Below are positions 16,981-64,000 of a DNA stretch of 64,000 nt, piece by piece. This DNA is from Mobula hypostoma (lineage: Eukaryota): NCBI RefSeq assembly GCF_963921235.1, contig NC_086097.1:85624001-85688000 (forward strand), read 5' to 3'. Below the pieces are notes generated by a model that saw nothing but the letters and a program-made list of their open reading frames with translations, was not told where the DNA came from and did no database searches. A program made the position numbers and the translations under genes. Position 1 is the first letter of the stretch, and each line of letters begins with the position of its first letter.

Positions 16981-17039
16981 AGTGCCAAGGGGAGTCATAG
17001 TACAAAAAAAATCATACACTTACAGACACAGCCTCAGAA

Positions 17040-18566: not shown

Positions 18567-19620
18567 TTGTCATAGGGATTGGAAGCTTGCGTGCCTCAAT
18601 GACCTAGAGAGCTATGTCGGAGTCAGAGCCTTGTGCTTTGACTCTTGGTATGGTCACCCATGTAAAAAAAGGAGAAATGGTAGAGGCCAGACTAAGAGTG
18701 GTCCACTGGTCCTCCAGATTCAGGGTTTCAGCTATGGTTTAACACCCCAGACGTGAGTGACTCTGTCTCGAAGCAGCAAGGAAGACTGAAGATCCAGGTG
18801 AATGCAGAGGGGGGTCAGTGATGGCTTGGCATGAGATGGCTGGCAGCTGGTTCGATGTGTTTGGCCCAGGGTCGGGTGGGCGGCGTCTGGCTCTGGATCA
18901 GCGGCCCAAGTCGGAGGTCACTTTTTATGGAAGGACTGAGTTCCTGTGGATGCTCTTTTCATATGCAGTGAAAAGATGTTTCCCATATTCTAAGATTTAT
19001 GTGCTTTTTGGACTGTACTTTATATTGGCTTCCTTCAATTTTTGGTCGTTTTCTTTCTTGTGGTCAATTGGCGGGAGAGAGATCTGTTAATTTTTGTGTG
19101 TAGGAGGTGGGGTTGGGGATTTGGCACTACTGTTGCTGTTCTTTTCTGCAAATGAGAGTGTCGGGGATTGTTATGTGCAGAGGATGGTTGATTTTTTTTG
19201 TAGCTTTTTCTGCTATGGGGAGGGTGGGATTTTTGGGTTCTGCGAGTTTTGTTTCTTTTTCATGCTGGTTGGGGATGAGGGTGCGTTGATGTATTTTCTT
19301 TCTTCTGTATTTCATGGCTATCTGGAGAAGACAAATATCAGAGTCGTATTGTAATGCATACTTTGACAATAAAATGAACCTTTGAACCATTAAAACAAAA
19401 TTGTTACAGAAACAGCAATCCTTCTGTATTTTTGAGTCACCACCCGGGACTTGCATGACTGACAGCAGTGAAAACTGAGAGGTAACTACTGGCATGATGA
19501 AGGAAGCCCTGAACACCACCAAGACCAAGACCAAAATTGGTTTTGATGGCTCGGAATAGACAGAGATGAAGGACCTCCATTGCTGCCCTAAACACTAGCA
19601 ACATAACGAGCGGTAAGAAG
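18567..19620 (+). mobile_element. Non-autonomous RTE (Rex3/Expander-like) derivative interrupted by a LINE 3'-UTR insertion (~18753-19388)
   Basis: Expander-like 5' region (gcttgcgtgcctcaatgacc...ggtcacccatg...ccagactaagagtggtcc) and RTE-type 3' end (gatgaaggacctccattgctgccctaaac). The insert ends aataaaatgaacctttgaacc. Confidence 0.55.
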
Positions 19621-33610: not shown

Positions 33611-34222
33611 ATTATAGATCATACTGTAGTCGATGAAAAGAAATAGTGAGCATCAGTTATGGCATTCCTTACTTCTTCATTTTTAATGCAACCTATCTAT
33701 ATTACCTCATTTCTCTTTCCTTAACTGAATTTTCTTTAACTTAATCTTTTCATGAGAGATTAATAAAGTAGGTCTAGAAATTAAAACACATAATGCAGTT
33801 TTGTTCAACATTATGTCAGAAACATTTTTTTTCAAATTTCAAACATGATATAGGTCATTTCCACAGGAGATTTTGTATCACTCTGGGAATGTGACTAGGC
33901 ACGTCCAGTTGTGAATCACCTCTGTGACTGTCTCAGTTTCAGCATCAGAGTGTCTGGAGTAGCAACATTCCCTAACCAGTGTGCCTTTTGGAGTACTTCA
34001 GATATCTAAGAACACATTCCAATGGAAGTAATCATCGTTGAGTACACCCAGGAAAACTAGATCTTCTGGGCTGCCTAATTCCATCTCTTCTCCTTGTCCA
34101 CAATCCTAATCCACCAATTTACATTTCATTGTAAATTCTTCAATACAGTAACTGTTTAATCTTTCCACTGTGGTGATATGATCCTAAGTAATATTGTGAT
34201 ACCTTTTGATATAATCACACAT

Positions 34223-35500
34223 TCTGACGAATCTCATAGAATTTTTTGAGGATGTAACTAGTAGAGTGGATAGGGGAGAACCAGTGGATGTGGTATATTT
34301 GGATTTTCAAAAGGCTTTTGACAAGGTCCCACACAGGAGATTAGTGTGCAAATTTAAAGCACACGGTATTGGGGGTAAGGCATTGGTGTGGGTGAAGAAT
34401 TGGTTAGCAGACAGGAAGCAAAGAGTGGGAATAAACGGGACCTTTTCAGAATGGCAGGCGGTGACTAGTGGGGTACCGCAAGGCTCAGTGCTGGGACCCC
34501 AGTTGTTTACAATGTATATTAATGACTTGGACGAGGGAATTAAATGCAGCATCTCCAAGTTTGCGGATGACATGAAGCTGGGTGGCAGTGTTAGCAGTGA
34601 GGAGGATGCTAAGAGGATGCAGGGTGACTTGGATAGGTTGGGTGAGTGGGAAAATTCATGGCAGATGCAATTTAATGTGGATAAATGTGAAGTTATCCAC
34701 TTTGGTGGCAAAAATAGGAAAACAGATTATTATCTGAATGGTGGCCGATTAGGAAAAGGGGAGGTGCAACGAGACCTGGGTGTCATTATACACCAGTCAT
34801 TGAAAGTGGGCATGCAGGTACAGCAGGCGGTGAAAAAGGCGAATGGTATGCTGGCATTTATAGCGAGAGGATTCGAGTACAGGAGCAGGGACGTACTACT
34901 GCAGTTGTACAAGGCCTTGGTGAGATCACACCTGGAGTATTGTGTGCAGTTTTGCTCCCCTAATCTGAGGAAAGGCATCTTTGCCATAGAGGGAGTAGAA
35001 AGAAGGTTCACCACATTGATTCCTGGGATGGCAGGACTTTCATATGAAGAAAGACTGGATGAACTGGGCTTGTACTCGTTGGAATTTAGAAGATTGAGGG
35101 GGGATCTGATTGAAACGTATAAGATCCTAAAGGGATTGGACAGGCTAGATGCAGGAAGATTGTTCCCGATGTTGGAGAAGTCCAGAATGAGGGGTCACAG
35201 TTTGAGGATAGAGGGGAAGCCTTTTAGAACCGAGATTAGGAAAAACTTCTTCACACAGAGAGTGGTGAATCTGTGGAATTCTCTGCCACAGGAAACTGTT
35301 GAGGCCAGTTCATTGGCTATATTTAAGAGGGTGTTAGATATGGCCCTTGTGGCTACGGGGGTCAGGGGGTATGGAGGGAAGGCTAGGGCGGGGTTCTGAG
35401 TTGGATGATCAGCCATGATCATAATAAATGGTGGTGCAGGCTCGAAGGGCCGAACGGCCTACTCCTGCACCTATTTTCTATGTTTCTATGTTTCTATGTT
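34223..35500 (+). mobile_element. Young CR1 LINE, 5'-truncated; RT C-terminal frame open (34266-35399)
   Basis: [31 protein letters not shown]-like; (tttctatg)n tail. Confidence 0.95.
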
Positions 35501-42769: not shown

Positions 42770-42864
42770 CAACAGGAATTCTGCAGATGCTGGAAATCCA
42801 AGCAACACACATAAAAGTTGCTGGTGAACGCAGCAGGCCAGGCAGCATCTGTAGGAAGAGGTAC

Positions 42865-42900
42865 AGTCGACGTTTCAGGCCGAGACCCTTCGTCAGGACT
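42865..42900 (-). ncRNA. Minimal hammerhead ribozyme, intact core
   Basis: Minus strand reads agtc-CTGACGA-agg gtctcgg cct-GAAA-c-GTC-gact, with palindromic ACGT at stem III. Confidence 0.8.
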
Positions 42901-43194
42901 AACTGAAGGAAGAGTGAGTAAGGGATTTGAAAGTTGGAGGGGGAGGGGGAGATCCAAAATGATAGGAGAAGACAGGAGGGGGAGGGATGGAGCCAAGAGA
43001 TGGACAGGTGATAGGCAAAAGGCACATGAGAGGATCATGGGACAGGAGGTCCGGGAAGAAAGACAAGGTGGGGGGGGACCCAGAGGATGGGCAAGGGGTA
43101 TATTCAGAGGGACAGAGGGAGAAAAAGGAGAGTGAGAGAATGAATGTGTGTATAAAAATAAGTAACAGATGGGGTACGAGGGGGAAGTGGGGCA

Positions 43195-43534
43195 TTAGCG
43201 GAAGTTAGAGAAGTCGATGTTCATGCCATCAGGTTGGAGGCTACCCAGACGGAATATAAGGTGTTGTTCCTCCAACCTGAGTGTGGCTTCATCTTTACAG
43301 TAGAGGAGGCCGTGGATAGACATGTCAGAATGGGAATGGGATGTGGAATTAAAATGTGTGGCCACTGGGAGATCCTGCTTTCTCTGACGGACAGAGTGTA
43401 GGTGTTCAGCAAAGCGGTCTCCCAGTCTGCATCGGGTCTCGCCAATATATAAAAGGCCACATCGGGAGCACTGGACGCAGTATATCACCCCAGCCGACTC
43501 ACAGGTGAAGTGTTGCCTCACCTGGAAGGACTGT
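43195..43534 (-). pseudogene. Penelope GIY-YIG endonuclease, C-terminal fragment
   Basis: VIYCVQCSRCGLLYIGET...RFAEHL...HFN...LEEQHLIFRLGSLQPDGMN. Confidence 0.85.
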
Positions 43535-44076
43535 AACAGGATCCCACCACTAAGCACATCTTTCCCTCCTCCCCTCTCTCTGCATTCCGCAGGGATCGCT
43601 CCCTACGCAACTCCCTTGTCCATTCGTCCCCCCCATTCCTCCCCACTGATCTCCCTCCTGGCACTTATCCGTGTAAGCGGAACAAGTGCTACACATGCCC
43701 TTACACCTCCTCCCTTACCACCATTCAGGGCCCCAAACAGTCCTTCCAGGTGAGGCAACACTTCACCTGTGAGTCGGCTGGGGTGATATACTGCGTCCGG
43801 TGCTCCCGATGTGGCCTTTTATATATTGGCGAGACCCGACGCAGACTGGGATACCGCTTTGCTGAACACCTATGCTCTGTCCGTCAGAGAAAGCAGGACC
43901 TCCCAGTGGCCACACATTTTAATTCCACATCCCATTCCCATTCCGGCATGTCTATCCACGGTCTCCTCTACTGTAAAGATGAAGCCACACTCAGGTTGGA
44001 GGAACAACACCTTATATTCCATCTGGGTAGCCTCCAACCTGATGGCATGAACATCGACTTCTCTAACTTCCGCTAA
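43535..44076 (+). pseudogene. Penelope linker plus GIY-YIG endonuclease fragment
   Basis: PGTYPCKRNKCYTC linker, then VIYCVRCSRCGLLYIGETRRRL...PDGMNIDFSNFR*. Confidence 0.85.
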
Positions 44077-44375
44077 TGCCCCACTTCCCCCTCGTACCCC
44101 ATCCGTTACTTATTTTTATACACACATTCTTTCTCTCACTCTCCTTTTTCTCCCTCTGTCCCTCTGAATATACCCCTTGCCCATCCTCTGGGTCCCCCCC
44201 CCCTTGTCTTTCTTCCCGGACCTCCTGTCCCATGATCCTCTTGTGTGCCTTTTGCCAATCACCTGTCCAGCTCTCGGCTCCATCCCTCCCCCTCCTGTCT
44301 TCTCCTATCATTTTGCATCTCCCCCTCCCCCTCCCCCTCCAACTTTCAAATCCCTTACTCACTCTTCCTTCAGTT

Positions 44376-44411
44376 AGTCCTGACGAAAGGTCTCGGCCTG
44401 AAACATCGACT
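44376..44411 (+). ncRNA. Minimal hammerhead ribozyme motif (variant)
   Basis: agtc-CTGACGA-aagg tctcgg cct-GAAA-c-ATC-gact; the ACGT palindrome is lost. Confidence 0.6.
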
Positions 44412-44489
44412 GCACCTCTTCCTACAGATGCTGCCTGGCCTGCTGCGTTCACCAGCAACTTTTATATGTGTTGTCTGAAAAAGAGGAAA

Positions 44490-44982: not shown

Positions 44983-45540
44983 TATATGCCAAAGCATCAG
45001 GTACTAGTGAATGGACCCTTCACATCTACTTTCATGTGTTGCACCACTGCAGTGCAAGTAAAGGAAGATTAGATTTAGGGATGGGTCTAGCAACCTCAGT
45101 CTTGGAACAGGTCACAGATTCCAGGTTCAATGAGATATCAGTCTGGGGTTGAACTGAAGAGTCTGAGTGAGATTTGAGAGTGATTAACGATTCAGAGCTG
45201 GGATTAGTAGGTGGGAGGAGGACCCAAAGGAGAGGATGAAAGGAAGGGAATTAACCAAATTAGTATTGCTATCATCACCTAAACTCATCTACTGAGGCTT
45301 TATGGGTGGAAATGAGGAATAAGAAAGATATGAGCACATTAATGGGGCTATGCAGTGCAGTGCGGCAGATTTAAAAGGAACAAAGTCTCATAGAGCGGGC
45401 AGCGTAGTTTGCGGGCTGCAGAGTGAGCCGGGAGCATAGTGAAGACTTAAGGGCTTCGGCTCAACGGGCTTAGGCGGAAACGAGAGGGGCGAGGAAGGTT
45501 TGGCATTCATTTTCTGTTGTTATTTGAGGAGAGGGGCATT

Positions 45541-46476
45541 ATGACTGTGAGGGCAGTTTGCTGTTCTCGGTGTCGGATGTGGGAGGCCCTGGAGTCTCCA
45601 AGCCTCCCGGACGTCTACATCTGCGCCAAGTGCATCGAGATGCAGCTCCTAAGGGACCGCGTTACGGAACTGGAGCTGCAGCTCGATGACCTTCGTCTGG
45701 TCAGGGAGAGTGAGGAGGTGATAGAGAGGAGTTGCAGGCAGGTGGTCACACCGGGGCCACGGGAGGCAGACAAATGGGTCACGGTTAGGAGGGGGAAGGG
45801 GAAAAGTCAGGTAATAGGGAGTACCCCGGTGGCTGTGCCCCTTAACAACTGGTACTCCTGTTTGAGTACTGTTGGGGGGGACAGCTTACCCGGGGGAAGC
45901 GACAGTGGCCGTGCCTCTGGCACAGAGTCTGGCCCTGTAGCTCAGAAGGGTAGGGCAAGGAAGAAGAGGGCAGTTGTGATAGGGGACTCGATAGTAAGGG
46001 GGTCAGATTGGCGATTCTGTGGACGCAGTCCAGAGACCCGGATGGTAGTTTGCCTCCCTGGTGCCAGGGTCCGGGATATTTCTGATCGTGTCCAAGATAT
46101 CCTGAAGTGGGAGGGTGAGGAGCCAGAGGTCGTGGTACATATAGGTACCAATGACATAGGTAGGAAAAGGGATGAGGTCCTGAAAGGAGAATATAGGGAG
46201 CTAGGAAGGGAGTTGAGAAAAAGGACCGCAAAGGTAGTAATCTCGGGATTACTGCCTGTGCCACGCAACAGTGAGAGTAGGAATGCGATGAGGTGGAGGA
46301 TAAATGCGTGGCTGAGGGATTGGTGCAGGGGGCAGGGATTCAAGTTTTTGGATCATTGGGACCTCTTTTGGCGCAGGCGTGACCTGTACAAAAAGGACGG
46401 GTTACACTTGAATCCTAGGGGGACCAATATCCTGGCAGGGAGATTAGCGGGGGCTACTGAGGTGACTTTAAACTAG
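45541..46476 (+). CDS. CR1 ORF1 protein (Zn finger, coiled coil, SGNH/GDSL esterase), apparently intact, 311 aa from ATG 45541
   Basis: CSRC..CAKC, LRDRVTELELQLDDL, VVIGDSIVR, VHIGTND, DGLHLN. Confidence 0.9.
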   Translation: MTVRAVCCSRCRMWEALESPSLPDVYICAKCIEMQLLRDRVTELELQLDDLRLVRESEEVIERSCRQVVTPGPREADKWVTVRRGKGKSQVIGSTPVAVPLNNWYSCLSTVGGDSLPGGSDSGRASGTESGPVAQKGRARKKRAVVIGDSIVRGSDWRFCGRSPETRMVVCLPGARVRDISDRVQDILKWEGEEPEVVVHIGTNDIGRKRDEVLKGEYRELGRELRKRTAKVVISGLLPVPRNSESRNAMRWRINAWLRDWCRGQGFKFLDHWDLFWRRRDLYKKDGLHLNPRGTNILAGRLAGATEVTLN

Positions 46477-46481
46477 AATGG

Positions 46482-49400
46482 TTGGGGGGTGGGAATCAAA
46501 TTAAAGAGGCTAGGTGTGAGGAGGTTAGTTCACAACAGGGGGATGGGAACCAGTGCAGAGAGACAGAGGGGTGTAAAGTGAGGGTAGAAGCAAAAAGTAT
46601 TAAGGAGAAAAGTAAAAGTGGCAGGCCGACAAATCCAGGGCAAGCATTAAAAAGGGCCACTTTTCAACATAATTGTATAAGGGCTAAGAGAGTTGTAAAA
46701 GAGCGCCTGAAGGCTTTGTGTGTCAATGCAAGGAGCATTCGTAATAAGGTGGATGAATTGAAAGTGCAGATTGTTATTAATGATTATGATATAGTTGGGA
46801 TCACAGAGACATGGCTCCAGGGTGACCAAGGATGGGAGCTCAACGTTCAGGGATATTCAATATTCAGGAGGGATAGACATGAAGGAAGGGGAGGTGGGGT
46901 GGCGTTGCTGGTTAAAGAAGAGATTAACGTAATAGAAAGGAAGGACATAAGCCGGGAAGATGTGGAATCGATATGGGTAGAGCTGCGTAACACTAAGGGG
47001 CAGAAGACACTGGTGGGAGTTGTGTACAGGCCACCTAACAGTAGTAGTGAGGTCGGAGATGGTATTAAACAGGAAATTAGAAATGTGTGCAATAAAGGAA
47101 CAGCAGTTATAATGGGTGACTTCAATCTACATGTAGATTGGGTGAACCAAATTGGTAAAGGTGCTGAGGAAGAGGATTTCTTGGAATGTATGCGGGATGG
47201 TTTTTTGAACCAACATGTCGAGGAACCAACTAGAGAGCAGGCTATTCTGGACTGGGTTTTGAGCAATGAGGAAGGGTTAATTAGCAATCTTGTCGTGAGA
47301 GGCCCCTTGGGTAAGAGTGACCATAATATGGTGGAATTCTTCATTAAGATGGAGAGTGACATAGTTAATTCAGAAGCAAAGGTTCTGAACTTAAAGAGGG
47401 GTAACTTTGAAGGTATGAGACGTGAATTAGCTAAGATAGACTGGCAAATGACACTTAAAGGATTGACGGTGGATATGCAATGGCAAGCATTTAAAGGTTG
47501 CATGGATGAACTACAACAATTGTTCATCCCAGTTTGGCAAAAGAATAAATCAAGGAAGGTAGTGCACTTGTGGCTGACAAGAGAAATTAGGGATAGTATC
47601 AATTCCAAAGAAGAAGCATACAAATTAGCCAGAGAAAGTGGCTCACCTGAGGACTGGGAGAAATTCAGAGTTCAGCAGAGGAGGACAAAGGGCTTAATTA
47701 GGAAGGGGAAAAAAGATTATGAGAGAAAACTGGCAGGGAACATAAAAACTGACTGTAAAAGCTTTTATAGATATGTAAAAAGGAAAAGACTAGTAAAGAC
47801 AAATGTAGGTCCCCTGCAGACAGAAACAGGTGAATTGATTATGGGGAGCAAGGACATGGCAGACCAATTGAATAATTACTTTGGTTCTGTCTTCACTAAG
47901 GAGGACATAAATAATCTTCCAGAAATAGTAGGGGACAGAGGGTCCAGTGAGATCGAGGAACTGAGCGAAATACATGTTAGTAGGGAAGTGGTGTTAGGTA
48001 AATTGAAGGGATTGAAGGCAGATAAATCCCCAGGGCCAGATGGTCTGCATCCTAGAGTGCTTAAGGAAGTAGCCCAAGAAATAGTGGATGCATTAGTGAT
48101 AATTTTTCAAAACTCGTTAGATTCTGGACTAGCTCCTGAGGATTGGAGGGTGGCTAATGTAACTCCACTTTTTAAAAAAGGAGGGAGAGAGAAACCGGGG
48201 AATTATAGACCGGTTAGCCTAACGTCGGTGGTGGGGAAACTGCTGGAGTCAGTTATCAAGGATGTGATAACAGCACATTTGGAAAGCGGTGAAATGATCG
48301 GACAAAGTCAGCATGGATTTGTGAAAGGAAAATCATATCTGACGAATCTCATAGAATTTTTTGAGGATGTAACTAGTAGAGTGGATAGGGGAGAACCAGT
48401 GGATGTGGTATATTTGGATTTTCAAAAGGCTTTTGACAAGGTCCCACACAGGAGATTAGTGTGCAAACTTAAACACATGGTATTGGGGGTAAGGTATTGA
48501 TGTGGATAGAGAATTGGTTAGCAGACAGGAAGCAAAGAGTGGGAATAAACGGGACCTTTTCAGAATGGCAGGCAGTGACTAGTGGGGTACCGCAAGGCTC
48601 AGTGCTGGGACCCCAGTTGTTTACAATATATATTAATGACTTGGATGAGGGAATTAAATGCAGCTTCTCCAAGTTTGCGGATGACACGAAGCTGGGCGGC
48701 AGTGTTAGCTATGAGGAGGATGCTAAGAGGATGCAGGGTGACTTGAATAGGTTGGGTGAGTGGGCAAATTCATGGCAGATGCAATTTAATGTGGATAAAT
48801 GTGAAGTTATCCACTTTGGTGGCAAAAATAGGAAAACAGATTATTATCTGAATGGTGGCCGATTGGGAAAAGGGGAGGTGCAACGAGACCTGGATGTCAT
48901 TATACACCAGTCATTGAAAGTGGGCATGCAGGTACAGCAGGCGGTGAAAAAGGCGAATGGTATGCTGGCATTTATAGCGAGAGGATTCGAGTACAGGAGC
49001 AGGGACGTACTACTGCAGTTGTACAAGGCCTTGGTGAGACCACACCTGGAGTATCGTGTGCAGTTTTGGTCCCCTAATCTGAGGAAAGACATCCTTGCCA
49101 TAGAGGGAGTACAAAGAAGGTTCACCAGATTGATTCCTGGGATGGCAGGACTTTCATAGGAATAAAGACTGGATGAACTGGGCTTGTACTCGTTGGAATT
49201 TAGAAGATTGAGGGGGGATCTGATTGAAACGTATAAGATCCTAAAGGGATTGGACAGGCTAGATGCAGGAAGATTGTTCCCGATGTTGGGGAAGTCCAGA
49301 ACGAGGGGCCACAGTTTGAAGATAGAGGGGAAGCCTTTTAGGACCGAGATTAGGAAAAACTTCTTCACACAGAGAGTGGTGAATCTGTGGAATTCTCTGC

Positions 49401-49513
49401 CACAGGAAACAGTTGAGGCCAGTTCATTGGCTATATTTAAGAGGGAGTTAGATATGGCCCTTGTGGCTACGGGGGTCAGGGGGTACGGAGGGAAGGCTGG
49501 GGCGGGGTTCTGA
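46482..49513 (+). pseudogene. CR1 ORF2 (APE endonuclease + reverse transcriptase) with one frameshift (~48474) and two stops (49157-49165)
   Basis: [51 protein letters not shown]. Lesions are visible against the 34.2-kb and 61.3-kb copies. Confidence 0.93.
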
Positions 49514-52206
49514 GTTGGAGGATCAGCCATGATCATAATAAATGGCGGTGCAGGCTCGAAGGGCCGAATGGCCTACTCCTGCACCTATTTTCTATGTTTC
49601 TATATTATAGACCACTCAATAATCCACAGGATTTAGAGGAACATGTTTGTACAGAGATCACAGGCTAATGCAAGAAACATAAGGTTGTTATAGTAGGTGA
49701 TTTTAACTTTCCACTTATTGACTGGGACTCCCATACTGTAAAAGAACTAGATGGGATAGAGTCTGTCAAAAGTGTTCAGGAAAGTTTCCTTCATTAGTAT
49801 TTAGGAATCCCGACAAGAGAGTGTGTAATACTTGACCTGCTATTACAGAATGAGACAAGGAAGGGGATAGAAGTTTGTGTAGATGAACAGTTTGCACCTA
49901 GTAACCATAATGCCATTAGTTTCAAAGTAAATATGGAAAATAATAGATCTGTTCTGCAGGTTGAGTTTCTAAGATGGAGCAAGGCCAATTTTGATAGTAT
50001 CAGAAAGCATCTGGCAAGTGTGGTTTGGGACAGGCTGTTTTCTGCCAAGGGTGTACTTGGTAAGTGGGAGGACTTCAAAGTGAAAATTTGAGAGTACAAA
50101 ACTTGTATGTATCTGTCAGAATAAAAAGTAAAGATAACAAGTTAGGAAACCTTGGTTTTCAAGAGATATTGAGGCCCTGCTTAAGGAAAAAAAAGATGTA
50201 TAGCAGGTTTAAACAGGTAGGAACAATTGATGTACTTATGCAGTATAAGAAATGCAAGAGGACACTTCAGAAAGATATAAGGAGGAATAAAAGAAGACAT
50301 GAGATTGCTCTAGCAGACCAGGTGAAAGAGAATCCCAAGGGATCCTACAAAATGTTAAGAGTAAATGAATTGCAAGGGGACAAAATTGGTCATCTGGAAG
50401 ATCAGAATGGAGCCAGACGAGATGGGGAGATCTTAAAAAGATTTTCGTATCTGTATTTATTTGGGAGATGGACAAAGAGTCTGTAGAAGTGGGGCAAAGC
50501 AGCAGCGAGATCACGCTTCTGTACAGATTACAGAGGAGGTGGTGTTTGCTGTCTTGAGGCAAATTTGGGTGGATATATCTCCAGGGTCTGACAAGCCATT
50601 CCCACGGACACTGTGGGAGGCAAGTGTGACAGGTGAGGTACTGGAGGATTGGCAAATAGCTAATGTTACTCCACTGTTTAAGAAAGACTTTAAAAATAAA
50701 CAAGAAAATTATAGACCAATGAGTCTGACATCAGTAGTGAGAGTTATAGGAAGGTATTCTAAGGGACAAGATATATGTGTCTTAGGATAGACAAGGACAG
50801 ATTAGAGATAGTCAGCATGGCTTTGTATGTGATAGGTTGAGCCTAACCAAATTATAGAGTTTTTGAGGAAGTTACCTGGAAAGTTGATGGAGGTAAGACT
50901 GTGAATTTTGTCTACATGGATTTTAGCAAGGCATTTGTTAAGGTCCCACATGGAAGGTTGTTCAAAAAGTCCCTTAGCATTCAAGATGAGGTGGTAAACT
51001 GGATTAGACATTGGCTTTCTGGGAGAAGCCAGAGAATGGTAGTAGATGGCTGTCTCGCTGACTGAGGCCAGTGACTAGTGGAGTGTTACAGGGATCGGTG
51101 CTGTGTCTGTTGTTGTTTGTCATCTATATCAGTGATCCAGATTATAATGTGGTTAGCCGGATAAGAAATTTGTGGGTGACACCAAGATTAGGTGTGTAGT
51201 GAACAATGAGGAAGGCTATCAGAGCTTGGAGTAGGATATGGACCAGTTGGAAAAATAAAGGATAGAATTGAATGCAGACAAGTTTGACATGTTGCACTTT
51301 GGTAGGATCAACCAGCATAGGTCTTACAGAGTGAACGATAGGGCACTAAGGAGTGCGGTAGAACAAAGGGAATACAGGTCCATAAAGTGGTGGTACAGAG
51401 AGACAGGGTCACAAGGAAAGCTCTTGGCACATTGGTATTGAGAGCAAGAGATGGGATGTCATGTTGAAGTTGTTTAAGACATTAGTGAGTATTGTGTGCA
51501 GTTTAGGTCACCAATCTACAAGAAAGATATAAATGAGGTTGAAATAGTACAGAGAAAATTCACAAGGATGTTGCTGGGACTAGAGGGCCTGAGTTATAAG
51601 GAAAGATTGAACAGGTTATGATTTTATTCCTTAGAACATAAAAGATTGAGAAGAGATTTGATAGAGGTATATAAAATTATGAGGGGTATTGATAGGGTAA
51701 ATGCAAGCAGGCTCCTTCCATTCAGGTTGGGGGAACTACAGCTAGAGATCATGGCTTGTGGGTGAAAGGTGAAAAGTTTAAGTTTAGAGTAGAACAAGCT
51801 GCCAGTGCCAGTGATGCATGCAAACTCAATTTTAATGTTTAAGAGAAGCTTGGATAGGTGCATGGTTGAGTGGGATATGGAGGGCTATGGTCCAGGTGAA
51901 GGCTGATAGGACTAGGCAGTTTAAATGGTTCAGCATAGAATAGATGGGCTAAGGGGCCTGTTTCTGTGCTGTGCTTTTCTATCACTCTATGACTCCATGG
52001 TTGATCAAAGAATATACTGTATCTGATGCACCTAAGAACATCAAATCTTAATTTCCCTGTCAGTCTTCAGAGAGGCACATATAAGATTATATTCCATGTG
52101 TATTTGGTGCACCAATCACATCCTTAGTGCAAATATCACATCCTTAGTACAGGTACAATCTTTGACCAAATTTCTGGAGTGGAGCAGATTGATTCAGAAA
52201 TTGTCA

Positions 52207-53652
52207 CAATTGTGTTCCACTCCAGAAATGGCTGATGTAAAAATAATTATTTAAACATAAATTTCTTGGCCTTATTGCTGAGACACAGGGAGAAGGAATT
52301 ACTTCCTGTGTGCCTTGTGCAGAAATGGCCTCATATTGAGAACTGCTTTGCTTCCTTTCCACACCCGCCTTTCAAATGTATTGTCCCATTGTGCATCGTC
52401 CTCTGCCAAATCCCCTATTAATGCCACACTGCAAGGTGAATAGCTGCACATAAACCTATAACTGAAACTTGAGATCAGAGAAATTCCTTAAGCACTTTGC
52501 ACACAATTTCTTCTAGATTTAGGTCAACTGATACAACCATGCAAACTATGAAACTACTTGGTGAACCACAGCAAATGGTACAAAGAAATGAACCCAGCAA
52601 CAAACTGGCAAATAGTGACCTCTAATTAATGCTGGAAGGTACTGCTACTTGCTGCTAACATTGTCCGACCGTGCAGTGTTGAGCGGGACCATGATGGAGC
52701 TTTTCAGCTCCAAAATGTCATGGGCCTATGTCAATACTATATACTGCTCCTTACTCCCTACATGACCTATGGGTGTCCTTTTGCAGCTCCAGTTGTGGTT
52801 GTAGCACCCGGAAAGGGGTACTCGTTTCTAATCATTCAGCTCATGCAACAAAGTAGGGTACCACGTACAATTCTGATTTGATGGAGACAGATGTGAGAAT
52901 ACGGAGGAACATCCGGAGAAATTTCTGAAATGCCCACTTCGCTGCCGCTGCTACTGTGTGGTAACCGAAATCTCCTGAGCAGAAGGCCCCGAATCCTCGG
53001 CTTTGCATGTTTCAACAGCCGGGGTGGGGTCGAAGGCACTCGGGAGGCTGTATCGGAGGGGCTGATCGGAGGCTCGAAGTTTTTGGATGGATGGACTCAG
53101 TGTCGGCTGTGGTCGGCTGCTTCCAAGTCATCGGCAAGTTGTCGGTGCCTGGAGGTTTACGGCAGGAAGTTTCTCCCTTTTGCCGCCTGCTATCGGGGAC
53201 TCGGGAGTCGATCGACTCGGGACTTTCAGGCTTTTTTTTTTACCGTGCCCATGGTTTGTTCTTCATCAAATTATGGTATTGCTTTGCACTGCTGTAACTA
53301 TATGTTATAATTATGTGGTTCTGTCAGCGTTAGTCTTTGCTTTGTCCTGTTTTCTGTGATATCACTCTGGAGAAACATTGTATCATTTCTTAATGCACGT
53401 ATGCATTTCTAAATGACAATAAAAGAGGTCTGAGTGTTCTCATAATCTTAAAAAAAGTCTATTACAGCAAATAATATTTTAACTGTGCTTCAAAATTTAT
53501 TAACTAATGACTGGTTTATTGGACTGCTGCAATCAGTATTTAACAGGTCTTGTGCGATACAAGATTAGAAGTAATGATGCACACAAACTTACACTAATTG
53601 TCGACAATTAGCCATAAAACATCTGAGCTAACTTGCCACTAATATAGTTTCT
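52207..53652 (+). repeat. Copy 1 of ~843-bp direct repeat (contains a 599-bp insertion)
   Basis: caattgtgttc...aacttgccactaatatagtttct aligns end to end with 56350-57193. Confidence 0.95.
52855..53453 (+). mobile_element. Unclassified CpG-rich non-LTR retroposon fragment with 5-bp TSD
   Basis: Absent from repeat copy 2. aaagt at 52850-52854 and 53454-53458. aataaa plus short A tail. Confidence 0.75.
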
Positions 53653-56349
53653 TTCTTTTCAAATCTTTTTATTGTTATTATCCAAAATTAACAAAAGTAA
53701 ATCGAAGTAGGGAACACCTACTATGTCTCAAGAAAAAAAACATTGTTTTAAAGATTGAAAAAATTTTGGTGACAAAAAAAGAGAAAAAAACCCTACTAAG
53801 GAAGGAAAAGTGAGGAAAAAAACCCCATTAGGTGTTCAACCCTGGAGCCATGCATCATACAAAAAGCTTCTAAAGACAAACATCAAACCGCCAGCAAGAA
53901 AAAAAATGTACCAAAAATTCACAATTAAATCGTGGAGGAAATCTATCAATTAACTCAAATGATAGTAATGAGCAAATGAACCCCATCTTTTCTCAAAATC
54001 AAACATAGGTTCCAAAGTTCGACTTCTAATTTTCTCCAAACGAAGACATAGCATCACTTGAGAGAACCATTGTGACAAAGTGGGAGCTGATGTATCCTTC
54101 CACTTCAACAAAATGGCCCTCCTAGCTATCAATGTAACAAATGCAATAGCATGTTGGTCAGACAAAGAGATACCGCGGATATTTTGAGGAATTATTCCAA
54201 AAAGCACAGTTAATTTGTTAGGTTGTAAATTAATTTCAAGTGTTTTAGAAATTGTAGAAAAAACTGACTTCCAGAACTGTTCCGGTATAGAACAGGACCA
54301 AAACATGTGTGTCAGTGTAGCTGTCTCAGTTTTACATCTATCGCAATAACTATCAACATTAGGACACATTTTAGACAATCTCTCCTTCGTCACATAGTAA
54401 CAATGTACAATTTTAAATTGAATCAGTGAATGACTAACACAGATCAAAGAAAAGTTAACCAACTCCAAAATCCGCGTCCAGTCCTCCATCATAAAAGTCA
54501 AATTAAGTTCCTTTTCCCAATCTTGTTTAATCTTAAATAAAGGACGCTTATCCCATTGTAATAGTAAATTATAAATTCTTCCAATCGAACCCTTCATCAA
54601 AGGGTTCATACTTATAATAGTTTCTAACAGGTCAGCATCTAATATGTAAGGAAAATTACTTAAATATTTTTGTAAGAAATGCCTAACTTGAAGGTATTGT
54701 AAAAAGTCTGAGTATGAAAGAGAATATTTATCAACTAATTGTTCAAAAGACATCAGTCTATCTTCTTTAAATAAATCCAGAAAAGAATTAATACCTTCAT
54801 TTTACCAAAGTAAAAAAACTGGATCACTCAAAGAAGGCTTAAAAAATGTAATTTCAATAAATTAAACTACAAAGTTTAAATTTTTTAAGATTAAAAAAAT
54901 TACGGGACTGGAGCCAAGTTTGTAAAGAAATCTTAATCACAGGGTATAAATTTAAATTAGCAACTTTAGCTAATTGTATAAGTAAAGCAGCTCCCAATAA
55001 CAAGGTTAAATAAAACTGTTTCACAGCTTTCAATTCCAAATCTACCCAAACTGGCCGATAGTTCTTATCAACCCAGTGTAACCAAAAGGACAAATATCGC
55101 ACATTAATAGTCATAGTTATAGTCATACTTTATTGATCCCGGGGGAAATTGGTTTTCGTTACAGTTGCACCATAAATAATAAACAGTAATAGAACCATAA
55201 ATAGTTAAATAGTAATATGTAAATTATGCCAGTAAATTATGAAGTAAGTCCAGGACCAGCCTATTGGCTCAGGGTGTCTGACCCTCCAAGGGTCAGCACA
55301 GTAACAGCCCAGTAATACATTCTTAAATTAGGCAAAGCGAGACCTCCATCCTTTTTCAACTTTTGTAAATGACATTTACTAATTCTTGGTCTTTTATTAT
55401 TCCAAATAAAAGATAAAATAATAGAATCAATCCGATCAAAAAACTTCTTAGTCAGAAAAACAGGGATATTCTGAAATAAATATAAAAATTTTGGTAAAAT
55501 GATCATTTTGACTAGATGGATGCGACCAACAAGTGAAAATGTAAGTGGGTTCCATGTACTAAACAAATACTTCATAGAATCTACCAACGGAACAAAATTA
55601 GTTTTATAAAGATCCTTATATTTTTAATGATTGTAACACCTAAATATCTAAAGGAATCCATGACTTTGAAAGGAGTATTATCATATATAGAAACCGACTC
55701 ATTTAAAGGAAACAGTTCACTTTTACTAAAACTTATTTTATGTCCTGAAAAATCTCCAAATTCATTAAATAATTTTAGCAAGGCAGGAATAGATTCCTCA
55801 GGATTGGATATATAAACCAGTAAATCATCAGTGTAAAGAGAAATCTTATGAATGGTCTCATTCACAAAAAACCCATAAATATCTTTAGCTTCACGGAGCA
55901 ATAGCAAGGGGTTCTAGTATTAAATTAAATAACAAAGGACTTGATGGACAACCTTATCTTGTCCCCCGTGAAAGCTGAAAAAAAGGGGATCTACAGTTAT
56001 TAGTAATAACAATTGCAATAGGGTTTTTATATATCATTCTAATCCAATTATTAAAATTAACACCAAAGCCAAATTTCTCTAAAACATAAATAAATATTTC
56101 CATTTGACTCCATCGAACGCTTTTTCCGCATCCAAAGAGACGACGCATTGTGGAGTTTTAAAAGAGGACGCATATATAATATTAAATAATCGCCGAACAT
56201 TTTAACCAGAATAACGGCCCTTGATAAAGCCTGTTTGATCTTTAAAAATAATTTTACCCAAAATATTCTTATCTTTGACAGAATCTTAGCATAAATATTC
56301 AATAATGAAATCGGTCTATATGAGGCACAATCAGTAGAATCTTTATCTG
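53653..56349 (-). mobile_element. L1-clade LINE, 5'-truncated ORF2 pseudogene
   Basis: SYRPISLLNIYAKILSK, LSRGTR.GCP, ISLYTDD, LPKFLYLFQ, GGLALPN, Cys-rich CDRC...HMFWSC; aataaa and A-rich 3' end at ~53653-53675. Confidence 0.92.
55108..55295 (-). mobile_element. Short LINE 3' tail inserted in the L1
   Basis: Interrupts L1 YYWAV|NVRYL. TSD gcacattaa (55099-55107) / gcacagtaa (55296-55304). (atgact)n tail. Confidence 0.8.
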
Positions 56350-57193
56350 CAATTGTGTTCCCCCCCAGAAATGGCTAATTTAAATATAATTATTTAAACA
56401 CAAATTTCTTGGCCTTATTGCTGAGACACAGGGAGAAGGAATTACTTCCTGTGTGCCTTGTGCTGAAATGGCCCCATATTGAGAACTGCTTTGCTTCCTT
56501 TCCACACCCGCCTTTCAAACATTTTGTCCCATTGTGCATCGTCCTCTGCCAAATCCCCTATTAATGCCACACTGCAAGATGAATAGCTGCACGTAATCCT
56601 ATAACTGAAACTTGAGATCAGAGAAATTTCTTAAGCACTTTGCACACAATTTCTTCTAGACTTAGGTCAACTGATGTAACCATGCAAACTATGAAACTAC
56701 TTGGTGAACCACAGCAAATGGTACAAAGAAATGAACCCAGCAACAAACTGGCAAATAGTGACCTCTAATTAATGCTGGAAGGTACTGCTACTTGCTGCTA
56801 ACATTGTCCGACCGTGCAGTGTTGAGCGGGACCATGATGGAGCTTTTCAGCTCCAAAATGTCATGGGCCTATGTCAATACTATATACTGCTCCTTACTCC
56901 CTGCATGACCTATGGGTGTCCTTTTGCAGCTCCAGTTGTGGTTGTAGCACCCGGAAAGGGGTATTTGTTTCTAATCATTCAGCTTGTGTGACAAAGTCTA
57001 TTACAGCAAATAATGTTTTAACTGTGCTTCAAAATTTATTAACAAATGACTGGTTTATTGGACTGCTGCAATCAGTATTTAACAGGTTTTATATGAAATA
57101 TAGGATTAGAAGTAATGTTGAACACAAACTTACATTTATTGTGGACAATTAGCCATAAAACATCTGAGCTAACTTGCCACTAATATAGTTTCT
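56350..57193 (+). repeat. Copy 2 of ~843-bp direct repeat
   Basis: Aligns with 52207-53652 minus the insertion. Confidence 0.95.
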
Positions 57194-57494
57194 CAACTTA
57201 CCGCATGCTTTCTCACCTTACAACTTCTAGCGTCACCGTGTACAAAAGGATAACAAGAGCGTGGAAGACTTTAATTGAATTGTAACAAGACTTTACCTCC
57301 TTAGAAGTACCCCCTCAAAGTGAGGAAATGACAGTAGTACGAGGGGTTCAGTGAATAGAGGCTTGAATTAGATGCTTTGGAAAGGATAGTTCAAGGCCTG
57401 CTCTCAAAATGAGGGACAAGGGTGAATACAGTACCTTTGATCTTACTTCCCTCCCATGCATTATAATGGAATCTATTAATGCTAGACAAACACA

Positions 57495-57925
57495 AAAATC
57501 CTGCATTTATATAGTAACTTCCTTTATCTCAGGATTTCCATATTGTTTTACATACAATGAGTGTATTTGAACTTCTATTGCAACTTTAATATAAGAAAAA
57601 CAACCTAAAATTTGCCCAGAGCAAGCTGCCATTGACGAAATTATTTTCAATAGCATTGGTTGAGGGATTAATATTGGCCAAGGCTCTTGGGAGATCCATG
57701 CTACTTCCCTGAAATCATGAAATAGGAACTTAAGCTTCCACCTCAGAGAACAAATGCAGTTTTGCCCATCTCAAAAGAGAGCATCTCCAATAGAACATGC
57801 CTCAGAACAGCATGAATTATTAACCTACTGTACATTATTGGGCTTGAGGCTTTGGACTAAACTTAAACTCAGAACCTTCTGATGTAGGAGCAAGAATGTA
57901 GCAAACAGAGGTGCCGCAGACACTA
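57495..57925 (-). mobile_element. Ancient DeuSINE-like element
   Basis: ttggttgagggattaatattggcca...; tRNA-head-like agaaccttctga; tail ctgcatttatatag. Confidence 0.65.
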
Positions 57926-57974
57926 ACACAGGAATCAGCAAATTTCATTCAATCATAACCAAAAATACAGTAGG

Positions 57975-59335
57975 TAAACAGGCCTATCAGCCCATCATGT
58001 CTGAGCTGTCCATCAACTACCCAAATATGCTATTCCTACATTAATCCATAATTTCACTCTCATCATGTTCTCATTGGTTAATCAATAGAAAGCAGACAGT
58101 TGGGATACATGGTTATTACTCTGGTTGGCAGTCAGTGACGAGTGGTGTGCCGCAGGGGTCGGTGCTGGGCCCGCAACTGTTCACAATATACATTAACGAT
58201 CTGGAAGAGGGGACCGAGTGTAGTGTATATAAGTTTGCTGATGACACTGACTTGAGTGGAAAAGCAAATTGTCAGAGGATACAGAGAGTCTGCAGGGAGA
58301 TAGAGATAGGTTAAGTGAGTGGGCAAGGGTATGGCAGATGGAGCACAATGTTGGTAAATGCAAGGTCAGCCAATTTGGAAGGGAAAATGGAAGATCAGAT
58401 TATTATTTAAATGTAAAAGATTTCAGCATACTGCTATGCAGAATGGCTTGGGAGTGCTCGTGAAAGGTTGGTGCAGCAGGCTATCAAGAACTCAGATGGA
58501 ATGTTGGAATTGCTAGAGGGATTGAATTCAAGAGCAGGGAGGTCATGCTGCAACTGTACAGGGTGAGGCCACACCTGGAGTACTGTGTGCAGTTCTGGTC
58601 TCCTTACTCGGGGAAGGATATACTGACTTTCAAGGCGATGCAGAGGAGGTTCACCAGGTTGAGTCCAGAGATGAGGGGGTTAGGCTATGAGGAGATATTA
58701 AGTCGCCTGAGATTGTACTCACTGGAATTCAGAAGGTGAGAGGAGATCATATCGAAACATATAAAATTATGAAAGGGATAGATAAGATAGAGGTAGGAAA
58801 GTTGTTTCCACTGGTAGCTGAGACTAGAACTAGAGGACATAGTCTCAAGATCTGGGGCCATAAATTTAGGATGGAAATGAGGAGGAACTGCTTTTCCCAG
58901 AGAGTGGTGAATCTGTAGAACTCTCCGCCCAATGTAGCAGTGGAAGCTACCTCAGTAAATATATTTATGACAAGGTTGGATAGATTTTTGCATAATAGGG
59001 GAAAAGGCAAATAGGTGGAGATGAGTCCATGGTCAGATCAGCCATGATCTTATTGAATTGCCGAACAGGCTCGAAAGGCCAGACTTCCTACTCCTGCTCC
59101 TATTTCTAGTGTTCTTATGTTCTTATCAACTCCCCTATTGTTCTACCACTCACCTACAGGGGCAAGTACAGCAACCTACCAACCCATGTGTACTTGAGAT
59201 TGGGGGGGAGAAACACAGGGAGCCTGACAGAAGTTCTGAGGAAGAAGATGCCACCTTCACACCAGCACCACAATCAGGATTGAATCCATGTCTCTAGCGA
59301 CTCTGAGGCCTTGCTGACTACACCCACTGGGCTGT
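57975..59335 (-). mobile_element. V-SINE (HE1-like) remnant split by a CR1 insertion
   Basis: Halves 57975-58074 and 59125-59335; head-like caggattgaatccatgtctct...ctctgaggc. Confidence 0.55.
58075..59124 (+). mobile_element. CR1 RT 3' portion (different subfamily)
   Basis: [32 protein letters not shown]; tail gttcttatgttctta. Confidence 0.9.
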
Positions 59336-59671: not shown

Positions 59672-62600
59672 TTCTCCTGGGTATGATGATAAACTACATC
59701 TGGCTGTGGAGCATTTGCTTTGGGTAATGAGGTTACCATTAACCACAGCTACCTCCAGGTCACCCTTAGGCACCTGTTAGCCTCCCTACTTGGGTTACAG
59801 TGAAGCCACGGAATGCAGGTGATGGATGAAGCAGAAGGCAAGTTGTGAGTAACACAATCAACGGTTCCTGCTTCTCAGACGCTCAGCAGTAGATCCTTTT
59901 AATAGGACGATGTTCAGGGTCACCCGTCTTGTAAAGACACTGCATCGGAAGCAAGCAAGGGAAAGCTACTTCTTGTATTTTATCCCTAGTACAACCATGG
60001 TTAATACATACACAAATGTAAAAGATAACAGCATAAATAGCAGCCCACTTCCAAATAGTGTGGACACCTCGCTCGGTAGGGGATATCATGTAAACAGATA
60101 GGTGAGCCCAGATCGTCACACCACTACTGTCTGCAAGAACAAGAGACTGCGAATTGCCACTTGGAATGTTCCAACCCTGCACCAAGCTGGTAAGCTAGAA
60201 AACGTAAAATTAGAAATGAAGAGGCTAGAGGTCAGCATCCTAGGCCTAAGTGAAATAAGGTGGAAAGGCACTGGAGTATTCCAATCAGACGACTACAGGA
60301 TGATATACTCTGGTGGAGGTAAACATGAAAAGGGTGTTGCAATCATCTTAGACAAAGAAACATCCAAGAGCCTGCTCGGATACTGGCATATCTCAGACAG
60401 AATGATGCTAATCAAACTAACAGGACAAGAAAATAACATCTCTATCATCCAAGTATATGCACCCACAATGGAAAGCTCAGGGGAAGAAACTGATGCCTTC
60501 TACCCCTCCCTAGACAAAGCACTAGAAGAATGCAAATCACAAGAAGCCATCATAGTCATGGGCGACTTCAATGCACAAGTTGGTGAGGGAAGAGAAGACC
60601 ATATTGTTGGAGACCAGGGATTGGGAGAAAGAAATGAAAGAGCAGAAAAGCTTATATCATGGTGTAAAACAAACAATCAGATAATCACCAACACGTGGTT
60701 TAAACAACATACAAGAAGGAAATGGACATGGAGAAGCCCAGATGGGAACAACAAAAATCAAATTGACTACATAACGATCAATAATAGTTTCAAAAACTCG
60801 ATAACTCAATCTAAAAGCTACCCTGGAGCAGACTGTGGAAGCGACCACATACCAGTCATTTCCAAAATGAAAATAAAGATGTGAAAATTAAAGAAACCAA
60901 AAAAATCAGAACCACTGGATTATCAACAACTACAGAACAACCCTCATCTGAAAACAGAATACACAATCAAGGTGAAAACCTGTTTTCAATTGCTGCAGGA
61001 TGAAGGAGGCAAATCTTCCTGGGACATACTGAAAGAATCCATGGTTGTAGCTGCAAAAGAAACCATCCCATGAAAAGAACGGAAAAGTAAGAAGAAATGG
61101 ATAACTGAAGATATAATACAATTGATGCAATGAAAACAGACCATCAAACTAAGAGACAGCGAAGAATACAAACAACTTGATAAGACAATAAAAAGAAAAT
61201 GCAGAGATGTTAACGACAGATGGCTAAATGTGAAATGCTCAGAGATAGAAATGCTACAAACCCATTCAGAACCTTTTCAGAATGGCAGGCGGTGACTAGT
61301 GGGGTACCGCAAGGCTCAGTGCTGGGACCCCAGTTGTTTACAATATATATTAATGACTTGGATGAGGGAATTAAATGCAGCATCTCCAAGTTTGCGGATG
61401 ACACGAAGCTGGGTGGCAGTGTTAGCAGTGAGGAGGATGCTAAGAGGATGCAGGGTGACTTGGATAGGTTGGGTGAGTGGGCAAACTCCTGGCAGATGCA
61501 ATTTAATGTGGATAAATGTGAAGTTATCCACTTTGGTGGCAAAAATAGGAAAACAGATTATTATCTGAATGGTGGCCGATTAGGAAAAGGGGAGGTGCAA
61601 CGAGACCTGGGTGTCATTATACACCAGTCATTGAAAGTGGGCATGCAGGTACAGCAGGCGGTGAAAAAGGCGAATGGTATGCTGGCATTTATAGCGAGAG
61701 GATTCGAGTACAGGAGCAGGGAGGTACTACTGCAGTTGTACAAGGCCTTGGTGAGACCACACCTGGAGTATTGTGTGCAGTTTTGGTCCCCTAATCTGAG
61801 GAAAGACATCTTTGCCATAGAGGGAGTACAAAGAAGGTTCACCAGATTGATTCCTGGGATGGCAGGACTTTCATATCAAGAAAGACTGGATGAACTGGGC
61901 TTGTACTCGTTGGAATTTAGAAGATTGAGGGGGGATCTGATTGAAACGTATAAGATCCTAAAGGGATTGGACAGGCTTGATGCAGGAAGATTGTTCCCGA
62001 TGTTGGGGAAGTCCAGAACGAGGGGTCACAGTTTGAGGACAGAGGGGAAGCCTTTTAGGACCGAGATTAGGAAAAACTTCTTCACACAGAGAGTGGTGAA
62101 TCTGTGGAATTCTCTGCCACAGGAAACAGTTGAGGCCAGTTCATTGACTATATTTAAGAGGGAGTTAGATATGGCCCTTGTGGCTACGGGGGTCAGGGAG
62201 TATGGAGGGAAGGCTGGGGCGGGGTTCTGAGTTGGATGATCAGCCATGATCATAATAAATGGCGGTGCAGGTTCGAAGGGCCGAATGGCCTACTCCTGCA
62301 CCTATTTTCTATGTTTCAATGTTTCGATAACCCTGGAACAAAGTTGATGCACAATAAGATTAAAGAACTAACAGGGAAATTACCTTACTCAGCAAGTGGA
62401 TGAATCAAGGCAAAAGATGGCAGCTTAATTATGAACAAAAAGGAATTCCTAAACAGATGGACGGAATATATAAAAGAACTTTTTGAAGACCAAAGAGGAG
62501 AAAAACTGAACATAAAGAAGAATCTTGAAGGACCTAGCATTCTAAAATCAGAAGTTCGAGCAGCCGTAAATAAAACAAAACATAACAGAGCAACTGGTCC

Positions 62601-64000
62601 AGACAACATCGCTGTTGAAATGATACTGGCCTTAGAAGATTTTGGAATAGAGAAAATAAAAGAAATAGCAAATGAAATCTACGATCATGGGGAGATACCT
62701 GATGATTTAAGTAAATCAGTGTTCCTCACACTTCCAAAGAAAGAGAGAGCAACAGAATGTGAGTTACATCATACAATAAGCCTGATGAGCCACGTGGCAA
62801 AAATTATTCTCAGAGTAATCATGATGAGAGCAAGACGCTGTATAAAACCAGAAATCAGTAAAGAACAATGCGGCTTTGTGGAAAACACTGGAACCAGAAA
62901 TGCAATTTTCATGCTACGGATGATCAGTGGACGTGCCATACAGGTACAAAAAGACATCTACCTATGTTTCATTGACTATACAAAAGCTTTTGACACTGTC
63001 AGACAGCAAGATCTTCTGGAAATGCTTCAAGATCTTGACATAGATGGGAAAGATGTACGCTTCTTAAGAAACTTATACTGGGACCAGACTGCACCCATCA
63101 GAATAGAAGGAGAAGTGAGTGAGTATCTGAATATCATGAGAGGAGTCAGGCAAGGTTGTGTCTTTTCACCAGACTTATTCAACCTGTATAGTGAAAATAT
63201 CTTGAGAAGTATCAAAGACAGCAAAGGATTCACAATCGGAGGCCATAATATAAATAACATCAGAAATGCTGATGACATCGTACTAATAGCTGACTCAGAA
63301 ACAAAACTTCAAGAACTACTCACTATAGTGGCAGCAGAAAGTAATCGCAGAGGCCTCTCAAGGCAGAAAGCATGGTCATCTCCAGAAAGACAAACATCCC
63401 ACAATGTGTGATCAAGATCGGAAATACAAACATCAAACAAGTCAACAAATTCAAATATCTTGGCAGCCTAATAACAAGTAATGGCGGGTGTGACACAGAT
63501 ATCAAATACAGAATAGCAACGGCGAAAGAAGCATTCCAAAAAATGAAGACCATATTAACAAACAGAAAGATGAGCATGCACACTAAAAACAGAATACTGC
63601 AGTGCTACATTTATTCTATCCTGACTTATGGAAGTGAATGCTGGACCATTTCTCCAGCAATGGAAAAGAGACTAGAGGCAGCTGAATTATGGTTCTACAG
63701 GAGAATGTTAAAAATATCATGCACCACACACACATCAAATGAAGAAGTTCTCAGAAGAGGCCAAGCAGTTCGATCACTCATACCAACAATGAGAGAAAGA
63801 CAACTCAGATTCCTAGGACACATCATGCGGAAAGATGAACTAGAAAAACTCATAATCTCCGGAAAAACTGAGGGGAGTAAACCTAGAGGAAGACCTTGGC
63901 TTATTTACATCAAAAGCATAGCCAGATGGCTGCACATCGAGGAAATGGAAGTTATCCAAAAAAAGGATAGATCTATATGAAAAACCATGGTCACCAAAGT
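59672..64000 (+). mobile_element. RTE-clade (BovB-like) LINE, near full length, disabled; continues past the window end
   Basis: ~400-bp 5' UTR; APE (IATWNV, GLSEIRW, QVYAPT, GDFNA, NQIDYI, GSDH); RT (EQCGF, CFIDYTKAFD, GVRQGCVFSP, NADD, FKYLGS, LTYGSECW); several stops and a frameshift near 63360. Confidence 0.93.
61271..62325 (+). mobile_element. Young CR1, 5'-truncated, nested in the RTE
   Basis: Near-identical to 48554-49600. RTE frame ...KCSEIEMLQ | NPGTKLMHNKIKELTG... is interrupted. Confidence 0.95.

Follow-up and report, generated by a model that had tools for sequence, protein, structure and literature searches.

The window analysed here, 64,000 nucleotides from the ray Mobula hypostoma (contig NC_086097.1, positions 85,624,001 to 85,688,000), contains between its positions 52207 and 57193 a 5'-truncated L1 element that is flanked on both sides by a copy of the same stretch of host DNA. 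A reading of the sequence alone had noted that the DNA at 52207-53652, less a later insert, recurs at 56350-57193, and self-BLAST of the window confirms this: 52207-52854 matches 56350-56997 at 96.1% identity, and 53454-53652 matches 56993-57193 at 92.5%. The unit that this sequence-only reading had put at ~843 bp is indeed duplicated, with exact lengths of 842 bp for copy 1 (after removal of a 599-bp insert and one copy of the AAAGT that borders it) and 844 bp for copy 2. The two copies differ at 38 of 842 aligned columns (26 transitions and 12 transversions; 4.5%, or 4.7% as Kimura two-parameter distance) and by one 2-bp indel. The boundaries of the unit are sharp: identical bases are present at only 3 of the 20 positions to the left of its start and 7 of the 20 to the right of its end, and the first four bases outside the unit give no match between the copies on either side. 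A self-search with a word size of 7 found no third copy in the 64-kb window. Between the copies, the interval 53653-56349 is occupied entirely by the L1, with no flank-derived or unit-derived DNA, so the element fills the gap exactly, as had been claimed. Along the L1-sense strand, the right flank is followed by copy 2, the L1 with its tail, copy 1, and finally the left flank, an arrangement that has the geometry of a target-site duplication (TSD).

The element appears to be a long interspersed nuclear element (LINE) of the L1 clade, judging from a match to the reverse transcriptase (RT) family RVT_1, a match to human ORF2p, and an AATAAA signal followed by an A-rich tail. Its reading frame is interrupted by stops and frameshifts. 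Seven of eight pieces were scanned against Pfam (one piece, containing a stop, was left out), and five of the seven came from the L1. Among these five, a single piece gave an RVT_1 match above the cut-off, another matched zf-RVT, the C-terminal cysteine-rich region, below it (E 5.8e-5, with 24.1 bits where 27.5 are required), and three gave no match, one of the three being the piece that matches human ORF2p residues 778-884. The final 11 residues of that piece read into the second copy of a 9-bp duplication and into a nested insert. The 5'-most piece has a weak match (E 0.09) to human ORF2p residues 522-550; consequently, the truncation would lie near residue 521, at the start of the RT region, and it is this truncated RT that adjoins copy 2, in agreement with the earlier description. 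The APE endonuclease and ORF1 have been lost with the 5' truncation, and no other copy of this L1 is present in the window. Since the 188-bp insert with its 9-bp duplication is nested within the L1, the element was originally 2,500 bp long. At its other end, the ORF2 stop (53952-53950) is followed by ~300 bp of untranslated region (UTR) and then AATAAA. The sequence-only reading had placed an A-rich 3' end against copy 1 at the junction gtttct|ttc; the junction stands, but instead of pure poly(A) the end has AATAAA followed by an A/G-rich tract of 15 nt.

Copy 1 and the L1 have each acquired an insert. The 599-bp insert in copy 1 is bordered by the 5-bp duplication AAAGT (52850-52854 and 53454-53458), and contigs from three relatives (B, D, and F, see below) cross the matching position in copy 2, 56997, unbroken. 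Rfam gave no match for this insert, for the 188-bp insert in the L1, or over 51900-58100. As far as tested, the duplicated DNA does not code for protein; no function is attributed to it.

Table 1. Positions of the duplicated unit, the L1, and their parts in the window
Feature	Position	Strand	Remarks
Copy 1, first part, 648 bp	52207..52854	+	self-BLAST and alignment; follows the L1 poly(A) side in the L1 sense
225-bp tract identical to copy 2	52535..52759	+	putative gene-conversion tract
Later insert in copy 1, 599 bp	52855..53453	+	AATAAA and short A tail; retroposon-like
Copy 1, second part, 194 bp	53459..53652	+	ends at the L1 3' junction
5'-truncated L1, 2,697 bp	53653..56349	-	broken ORF2, from start of RT region to C-terminus, and ~300 bp of 3' UTR
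L1 3' end	53653..53673	-	AATAAA at 53673-53668, then 15-nt A/G-rich tract into the AGAAA duplication start
ORF2 C-terminus piece, 283 aa open	53953..54801	-	zf-RVT match below Pfam cut-off
Nested insert in L1, 188 bp	55108..55295	.	9-bp duplication with 1 mismatch (55099-55107, 55296-55304)
ORF2 piece	55264..55623	-	human LINE-1 ORF2p residues 778-884, E 5e-24
RT piece	55584..55913	-	RVT_1, E 1.6e-7, above cut-off
L1 5' junction	56348..56349	-	1-2 bases that match neither the left flank nor the family continuation as listed
Copy 2, 844 bp	56350..57193	+	contiguous with ancestral right flank
225-bp tract identical to copy 1	56678..56902	+	copy alignment
Putative first-nick site	57188..57195	-	L1 sense TG|AGAAAC; canonical human TT|AAAA

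A search of sequencing runs with 56350-58060 as the query listed 24 runs, 20 of which contained part of the query. The fraction of query words found was 0.87-0.92 in the DNA runs of organism A, probably the source of the window, 0.55-0.57 in B, and 0.07-0.17 in C to H. Contigs from four of the 24 runs (those of B, D, and F, and run X12 of A) were aligned to 55900-58060, which comprises the 5' end of the L1, copy 2, and the right flank; the alignment includes no run of C, E, G, or H and no DNA run of A. The L1 belongs to a dispersed, multi-copy family, with a summed contig depth of ~1,900-18,800 compared with 3.5-10 over unique DNA (a contrast drawn from the L1 bins of three DNA-like runs, in which depth is not copy number).

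Both of the distant relatives aligned, D and F, lack the L1 and have a single unit that continues into the right flank, an empty site. Such a single copy without the L1 is what the sequence-only reading had named as support for a simultaneous origin, and neither D nor F shows a tandem pair. In D, a single 1,322-nt contig covers 56350-57551 with 72 differing letters and 32 gaps. It passes the end of the unit by 358 bases, and none of the 130 letters left over on its left side, before 56350, falls on the L1; the depth is flat at 9.72 and is wholly accounted for by this contig. F has a single contig that spans 56395-56819 and 56902-57271 and crosses 57193 into the flank, with 267 leftover letters on the left. 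Because the break in D falls at the exact base where copy 1 begins, the left-hand letters in D and F are taken to be left flank. Substitutions at 56410, 56568, and 56662 and a 1-bp indel at 56414 unite both window copies and B against D and F; thus, the single copy in D would be ancestral rather than reverted. Secondary loss in D through recombination between the repeats was considered and is disfavoured by these same four characters. F also has a second, unlisted match of ~44 bases (~56624-56667, depth ~8.7) with the window letters at three sites, which is probably a chance partial match.

The close relative B probably shares both the insertion and the duplication, which would place the event before the A-B split. 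One B contig stops at 57193 and the flank contig begins at 57164; the two overlap by 30 bases, as is typical at a graph fork, and the depth residue corresponds to one further contig, of depth 6.0, over the same 30 bases. In addition, there are two versions of 56581-56723, at depths of 5.0 and 3.7 versus 3.5 for the flank, which differ at 5 listed sites. The fork at 57193 together with the two versions fits the presence of two paralogous copies, with the second exit at the L1 3' junction. An L1 with only one flanking copy, which would have spoken against the reading as a giant TSD, was not encountered; B gives signs of two copies, with the L1-copy 2 junction unseen there.

For the two relatives D and F, the event postdates their split from the lineage of the window. 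The window differs from B in the flank at 16 of 897 positions (1.8%), from D by 4.2% (21/500) and 6.0% (72/1,192); for F, the distances are 7.2% and 8.7%. The copies differ from each other by 6.2% when the longest identical run is set aside (4.5% overall), and comparison of these values with the A-D distance suggests that the event followed the D split closely. Over 448 bp, the L1 departs from the majority of its family in B at 12 of the 13 sites listed, or by at least 2.7%. This is roughly compatible with 2.3-3.1% for each copy, in a comparison that mixes subfamilies and in which gene conversion lowers the figure for the copies.

The junctions provide information about how the element may have entered. 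The target, reconstructed in the L1 sense, is TG|AGAAAC, so that the duplication starts with AGAAA at the L1 3' end. By analogy with the human L1 endonuclease motif TT/AAAA (PMC12633430), the 3' junction resembles a degenerate L1-type nick site, with the motif scored post hoc; on the L1-sense strand, all-purine 5-mers with at least 4 A are present at 11 of the 840 unit positions. At the 5' junction, family contigs (runs X10, X13, and X12) run past 56346-56347 as (T)CTTTTT, where the window instead reads TG before the unit starts. The difference amounts to 1-2 extra bases, with no microhomology apparent, and the parent subfamily may differ from the listed contigs. No short TSD of the L1's own was found; a 7-mer inside the L1 is the longest repeat that its two ends share within 30 bp. 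Likewise, no second nick-like site was found near the start of the unit: there is no all-purine site 5-30 bases into copy 1, and the purine runs 5-30 bases into copy 2 are G runs only.

Very probably, a single L1 retrotransposition made both the insertion and the 844-bp TSD. The L1 endonuclease would have nicked the target at 57193|57194, and the resulting T-rich 3' end would have primed reverse transcription on the tail of the L1 RNA. Synthesis would then have yielded the cDNA copy that is 5'-truncated at 2.5 kb. The end of this cDNA would have been joined, with 1-2 extra bases, to a host end located 844 bp away rather than 10-20 bp away, and fill-in synthesis would have copied the 844 bp. 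The event falls after the split from D and F and probably before the split between A and B. Copy 1 and the L1 each gained a small insert later, and the copies would have exchanged sequence across the L1 by gene conversion. How the insertion was completed is a separate question. A distant second nick followed by strand displacement has not quite an even chance, and replication-coupled repair, through break-induced replication or a sister-chromatid end, is tentatively placed a little lower. These two routes leave an identical end structure, and the locus cannot separate them.

Several observations weigh against a single event or limit how precisely it can be reconstructed. The letters that precede 56350 in D, F, and B are known only as non-L1 sequence, which makes their identity as left flank an inference, and since the F alignment begins at 56395, the left boundary is fixed by D alone. 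The two outgroups place both changes on one branch, which is not the same as simultaneity. In B, the second branch at 57193 is the L1 tail by inference; none of the B contigs listed joins the L1 to copy 2; the contig at the unit start continues unbroken for 254 letters into non-L1 sequence; and 56411-56556, like most of the unit, is covered by a single contig. Low depth and graph cleaning could account for the single B contig and for the absence of an L1-copy 2 contig. The copy divergence (4.5%/6.2%) is of much the same size as the A-D distance (4.2%/6.0%), leaving little time between the split and the event, and the age of the L1 is only a lower bound, scored against mixed subfamilies. Finally, the nick motif was scored after the site had been seen, and the target preference of this L1 family may differ from that of human L1.

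The sequence-only reading had offered a choice between an L1 that itself duplicated host DNA and an L1 cDNA captured at a duplication junction. In an endonuclease-independent capture, break repair would have made the tandem duplication and L1 cDNA or RNA would have been patched into the junction. Such a capture likewise predicts a single copy in the outgroups and an L1 exactly at the junction, and the 1-2 extra bases at the 5' junction are of the kind seen in end joining. However, endonuclease-independent insertions usually lack a polyadenylation tail and a nick-site junction, and this L1 retains AATAAA and a tail, with its 3' junction on an A-rich purine site of the type found at only 11/840 positions. 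Because of the L1-type nick site and the intact 3' end, the L1 itself is favoured as the duplicator, and passive capture is considered very unlikely. An even smaller probability is given to two separate steps, in which an 844-bp tandem duplication came first and an ordinary L1 later entered its junction. Both changes do lie on the same branch, and the relatives aligned give no order for them; however, the chance of hitting the junction of a 1,688-bp pair is ~0.3% (within 2 bp) or 1.2% (within 10 bp), and a later L1 would be expected to have a short duplication of its own, which was not found. The same layout could be produced by unequal crossover between two L1s of the same orientation, located at opposite ends of the unit in different haplotypes, to give a chimeric L1, and the comparison with the L1 family covered 55900-56349 only. 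This demands two co-segregating insertions 844 bp apart, and the interior of neither copy offers the nick-like site expected (no all-purine site 5-30 bases into copy 1 and only G runs in copy 2), so that it is the least credible of the three. The idea that the unit is a dispersed repeat or long terminal repeat (LTR) in an LTR-like composite, or else an assembly artefact, can be practically dismissed: two long direct repeats around RT-coding DNA superficially resemble an LTR element, but the interior is L1 ORF2, the unit is present once in D and F, joined to the flank, with no third copy in the window, its flat, single-contig depth of 5.7-10.1 (B), 9.72 (D), and 8.71 (F) is hundreds of times lower than the ~1,900-18,800 over the L1, as expected if it is neither a dispersed repeat nor an LTR, and mis-assembly would not give 38 differences between the copies and an insert in one of them.

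Since the duplication, the simplest reading is that the copies have exchanged sequence by gene conversion across the L1. They share an identical run of 225 bases; when the 38 differences were placed at random, only 6 of 50,000 placements matched a run of this length. Position 56870 is T in both window copies and C in B and D. Furthermore, at positions 56629 and 56676 each of the four possible combinations occurs in the set of the two window copies and the two B versions (a four-gamete pattern), and the B contig of depth 3.7 has letters that agree with known states at 5 of the 5 sites compared. Purifying selection on an exon or conserved element was considered as the cause of the 225-bp tract and was rejected, as the tract is not conserved in D and F: a stretch of 82 bases (56820-56901) is replaced in F, which also lacks 10 bp, and D has lost 2 bp and gained 10 bp. 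A 104-aa frame over the tract gave no Pfam match. The search of runs listed none that is recorded as RNA. Run X12 of organism A, guessed to be RNA, leaves the unit uncovered and gives one 209-nt contig at 57314-57522, which is evidence neither for nor against; this contig has zero differences to the window and may represent DNA or unspliced RNA.

Other mobile elements are present elsewhere in the window. Copies of a young LINE family, which we take to be CR1-like from its motifs, are found at 5854-7910, 34215-35498, 45451-49606, and 61271-62328; these are 97-98% identical to each other, and the longest has an upstream 341-aa frame. The last copy (~61271-62328) interrupts another element, presumably RTE-like, at 60102-63977. 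An inverted pair with 96% identity (42803-43534 and 43737-44473) surrounds a 179-aa frame (43537-44073); we assume that this frame resembles a GIY-YIG nuclease and that the pair is Penelope-like. Broken frames on the minus strand at 13300-15653 are presumed to derive from the pol gene of an LTR retrotransposon. On the plus strand, a 120-aa frame at 9134-9493 has a weak match to zf-C17orf113 (E 0.026, below the cut-off) and is possibly a DNA transposon remnant.

How LINEs complete their integration is a question on which long TSDs bear, since the far host end shows where the second strand was broken or primed. The published cases found come from cultured cells and tumours; the ray locus shows entry into the germ line, with empty sites in two relatives. 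Here, the long TSD has lasted through at least one probable speciation, its copies having apparently been converted instead of collapsing. Being one locus in non-coding DNA, it does not discriminate between mechanisms, and no gene is shown to be affected by it; it is of value as a clean example. A further, unlikely proposition is that in this fish lineage inherited tandem duplications regularly arise from kilobase-scale L1 TSDs, which act as pseudo-LTRs; they would have been overlooked because TSD surveys often end at ~30 bp. If this were true, the pseudo-LTR-like copies would convert each other and might excise the L1 cleanly, creating a secondary "empty" site, and the locus would offer a natural, dated test of whether long TSDs are short-lived, as published work predicts. 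A literature search, with most subscription journals outside its reach, found no fixed, outgroup-polarised L1 TSD of sub-kilobase or larger size in fish, and the accessible portions of 10.1101/522623 and PMC13320814 contain nothing on kilobase TSDs.

Large L1 TSDs themselves are known, though rare, in other settings. Those of engineered human L1 were reportedly described by Gilbert in 2002 and 2005, as cited by Servant et al. In the work of Servant et al. (PMC5223499), engineered human L1 gave TSDs of >100 bp in <10% of HeLa events and in 57-91% of events in lines deficient in nucleotide excision repair (NER); the TSDs of NER-deficient cells spanned 5 bp to 5.3 kb, with a median of 1,495 bp. 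The ray locus resembles these insertions, in which an L1 is accompanied by a direct duplication of 0.1-5 kb, a range that includes 844 bp. However, those are de novo events of engineered elements in cultured cells, and the ray locus is endogenous, inherited, and 4.5% diverged, and has persisted even though long TSDs are expected to be short-lived, since the repeats can recombine (PMC5223499). In tumours and RPE-1 clones, L1-associated tandem duplications of 1-10 kb have been interpreted as large TSDs, with break-induced replication proposed (10.1101/2024.12.14.628481), and L1-bridged duplications can reach the megabase scale (PMC7058536). These cases share with the ray locus an L1 at the junction of a tandem duplication and an endonuclease motif at the 3' breakpoint, but they are somatic and human; the ray duplication is slightly <1 kb and inherited (10.1101/2024.12.14.628481, PMC7058536). 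Zebrafish ZfL2-2, when assayed in chicken DT40 cells, gave a 1,228-bp TSD in 1 of 25 wild-type insertions (PMC2666801). Here too a fish LINE has produced a kilobase-scale TSD, although it is a different LINE in a heterologous cell assay. Among inherited insertions, HERV-K (HML-2) loci have TSDs of 250 bp and 111 bp that are proven by the empty site (PMC5488345), as in the ray; these are shorter and result from retroviral integration, which is not target-primed. Ordinary truncated L1s of human and chimpanzee are likewise 5'-truncated and have extra 5' bases in 14.6% of cases, but their TSD lengths peak at 14-16 bp; that survey collected only TSDs of 5-30 bp, so that an 844-bp case would have been invisible to it (PMC2912911). 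Set beside these systems, the ray locus is most likely an old, inherited, and well-polarised example of the large L1 TSDs already described.

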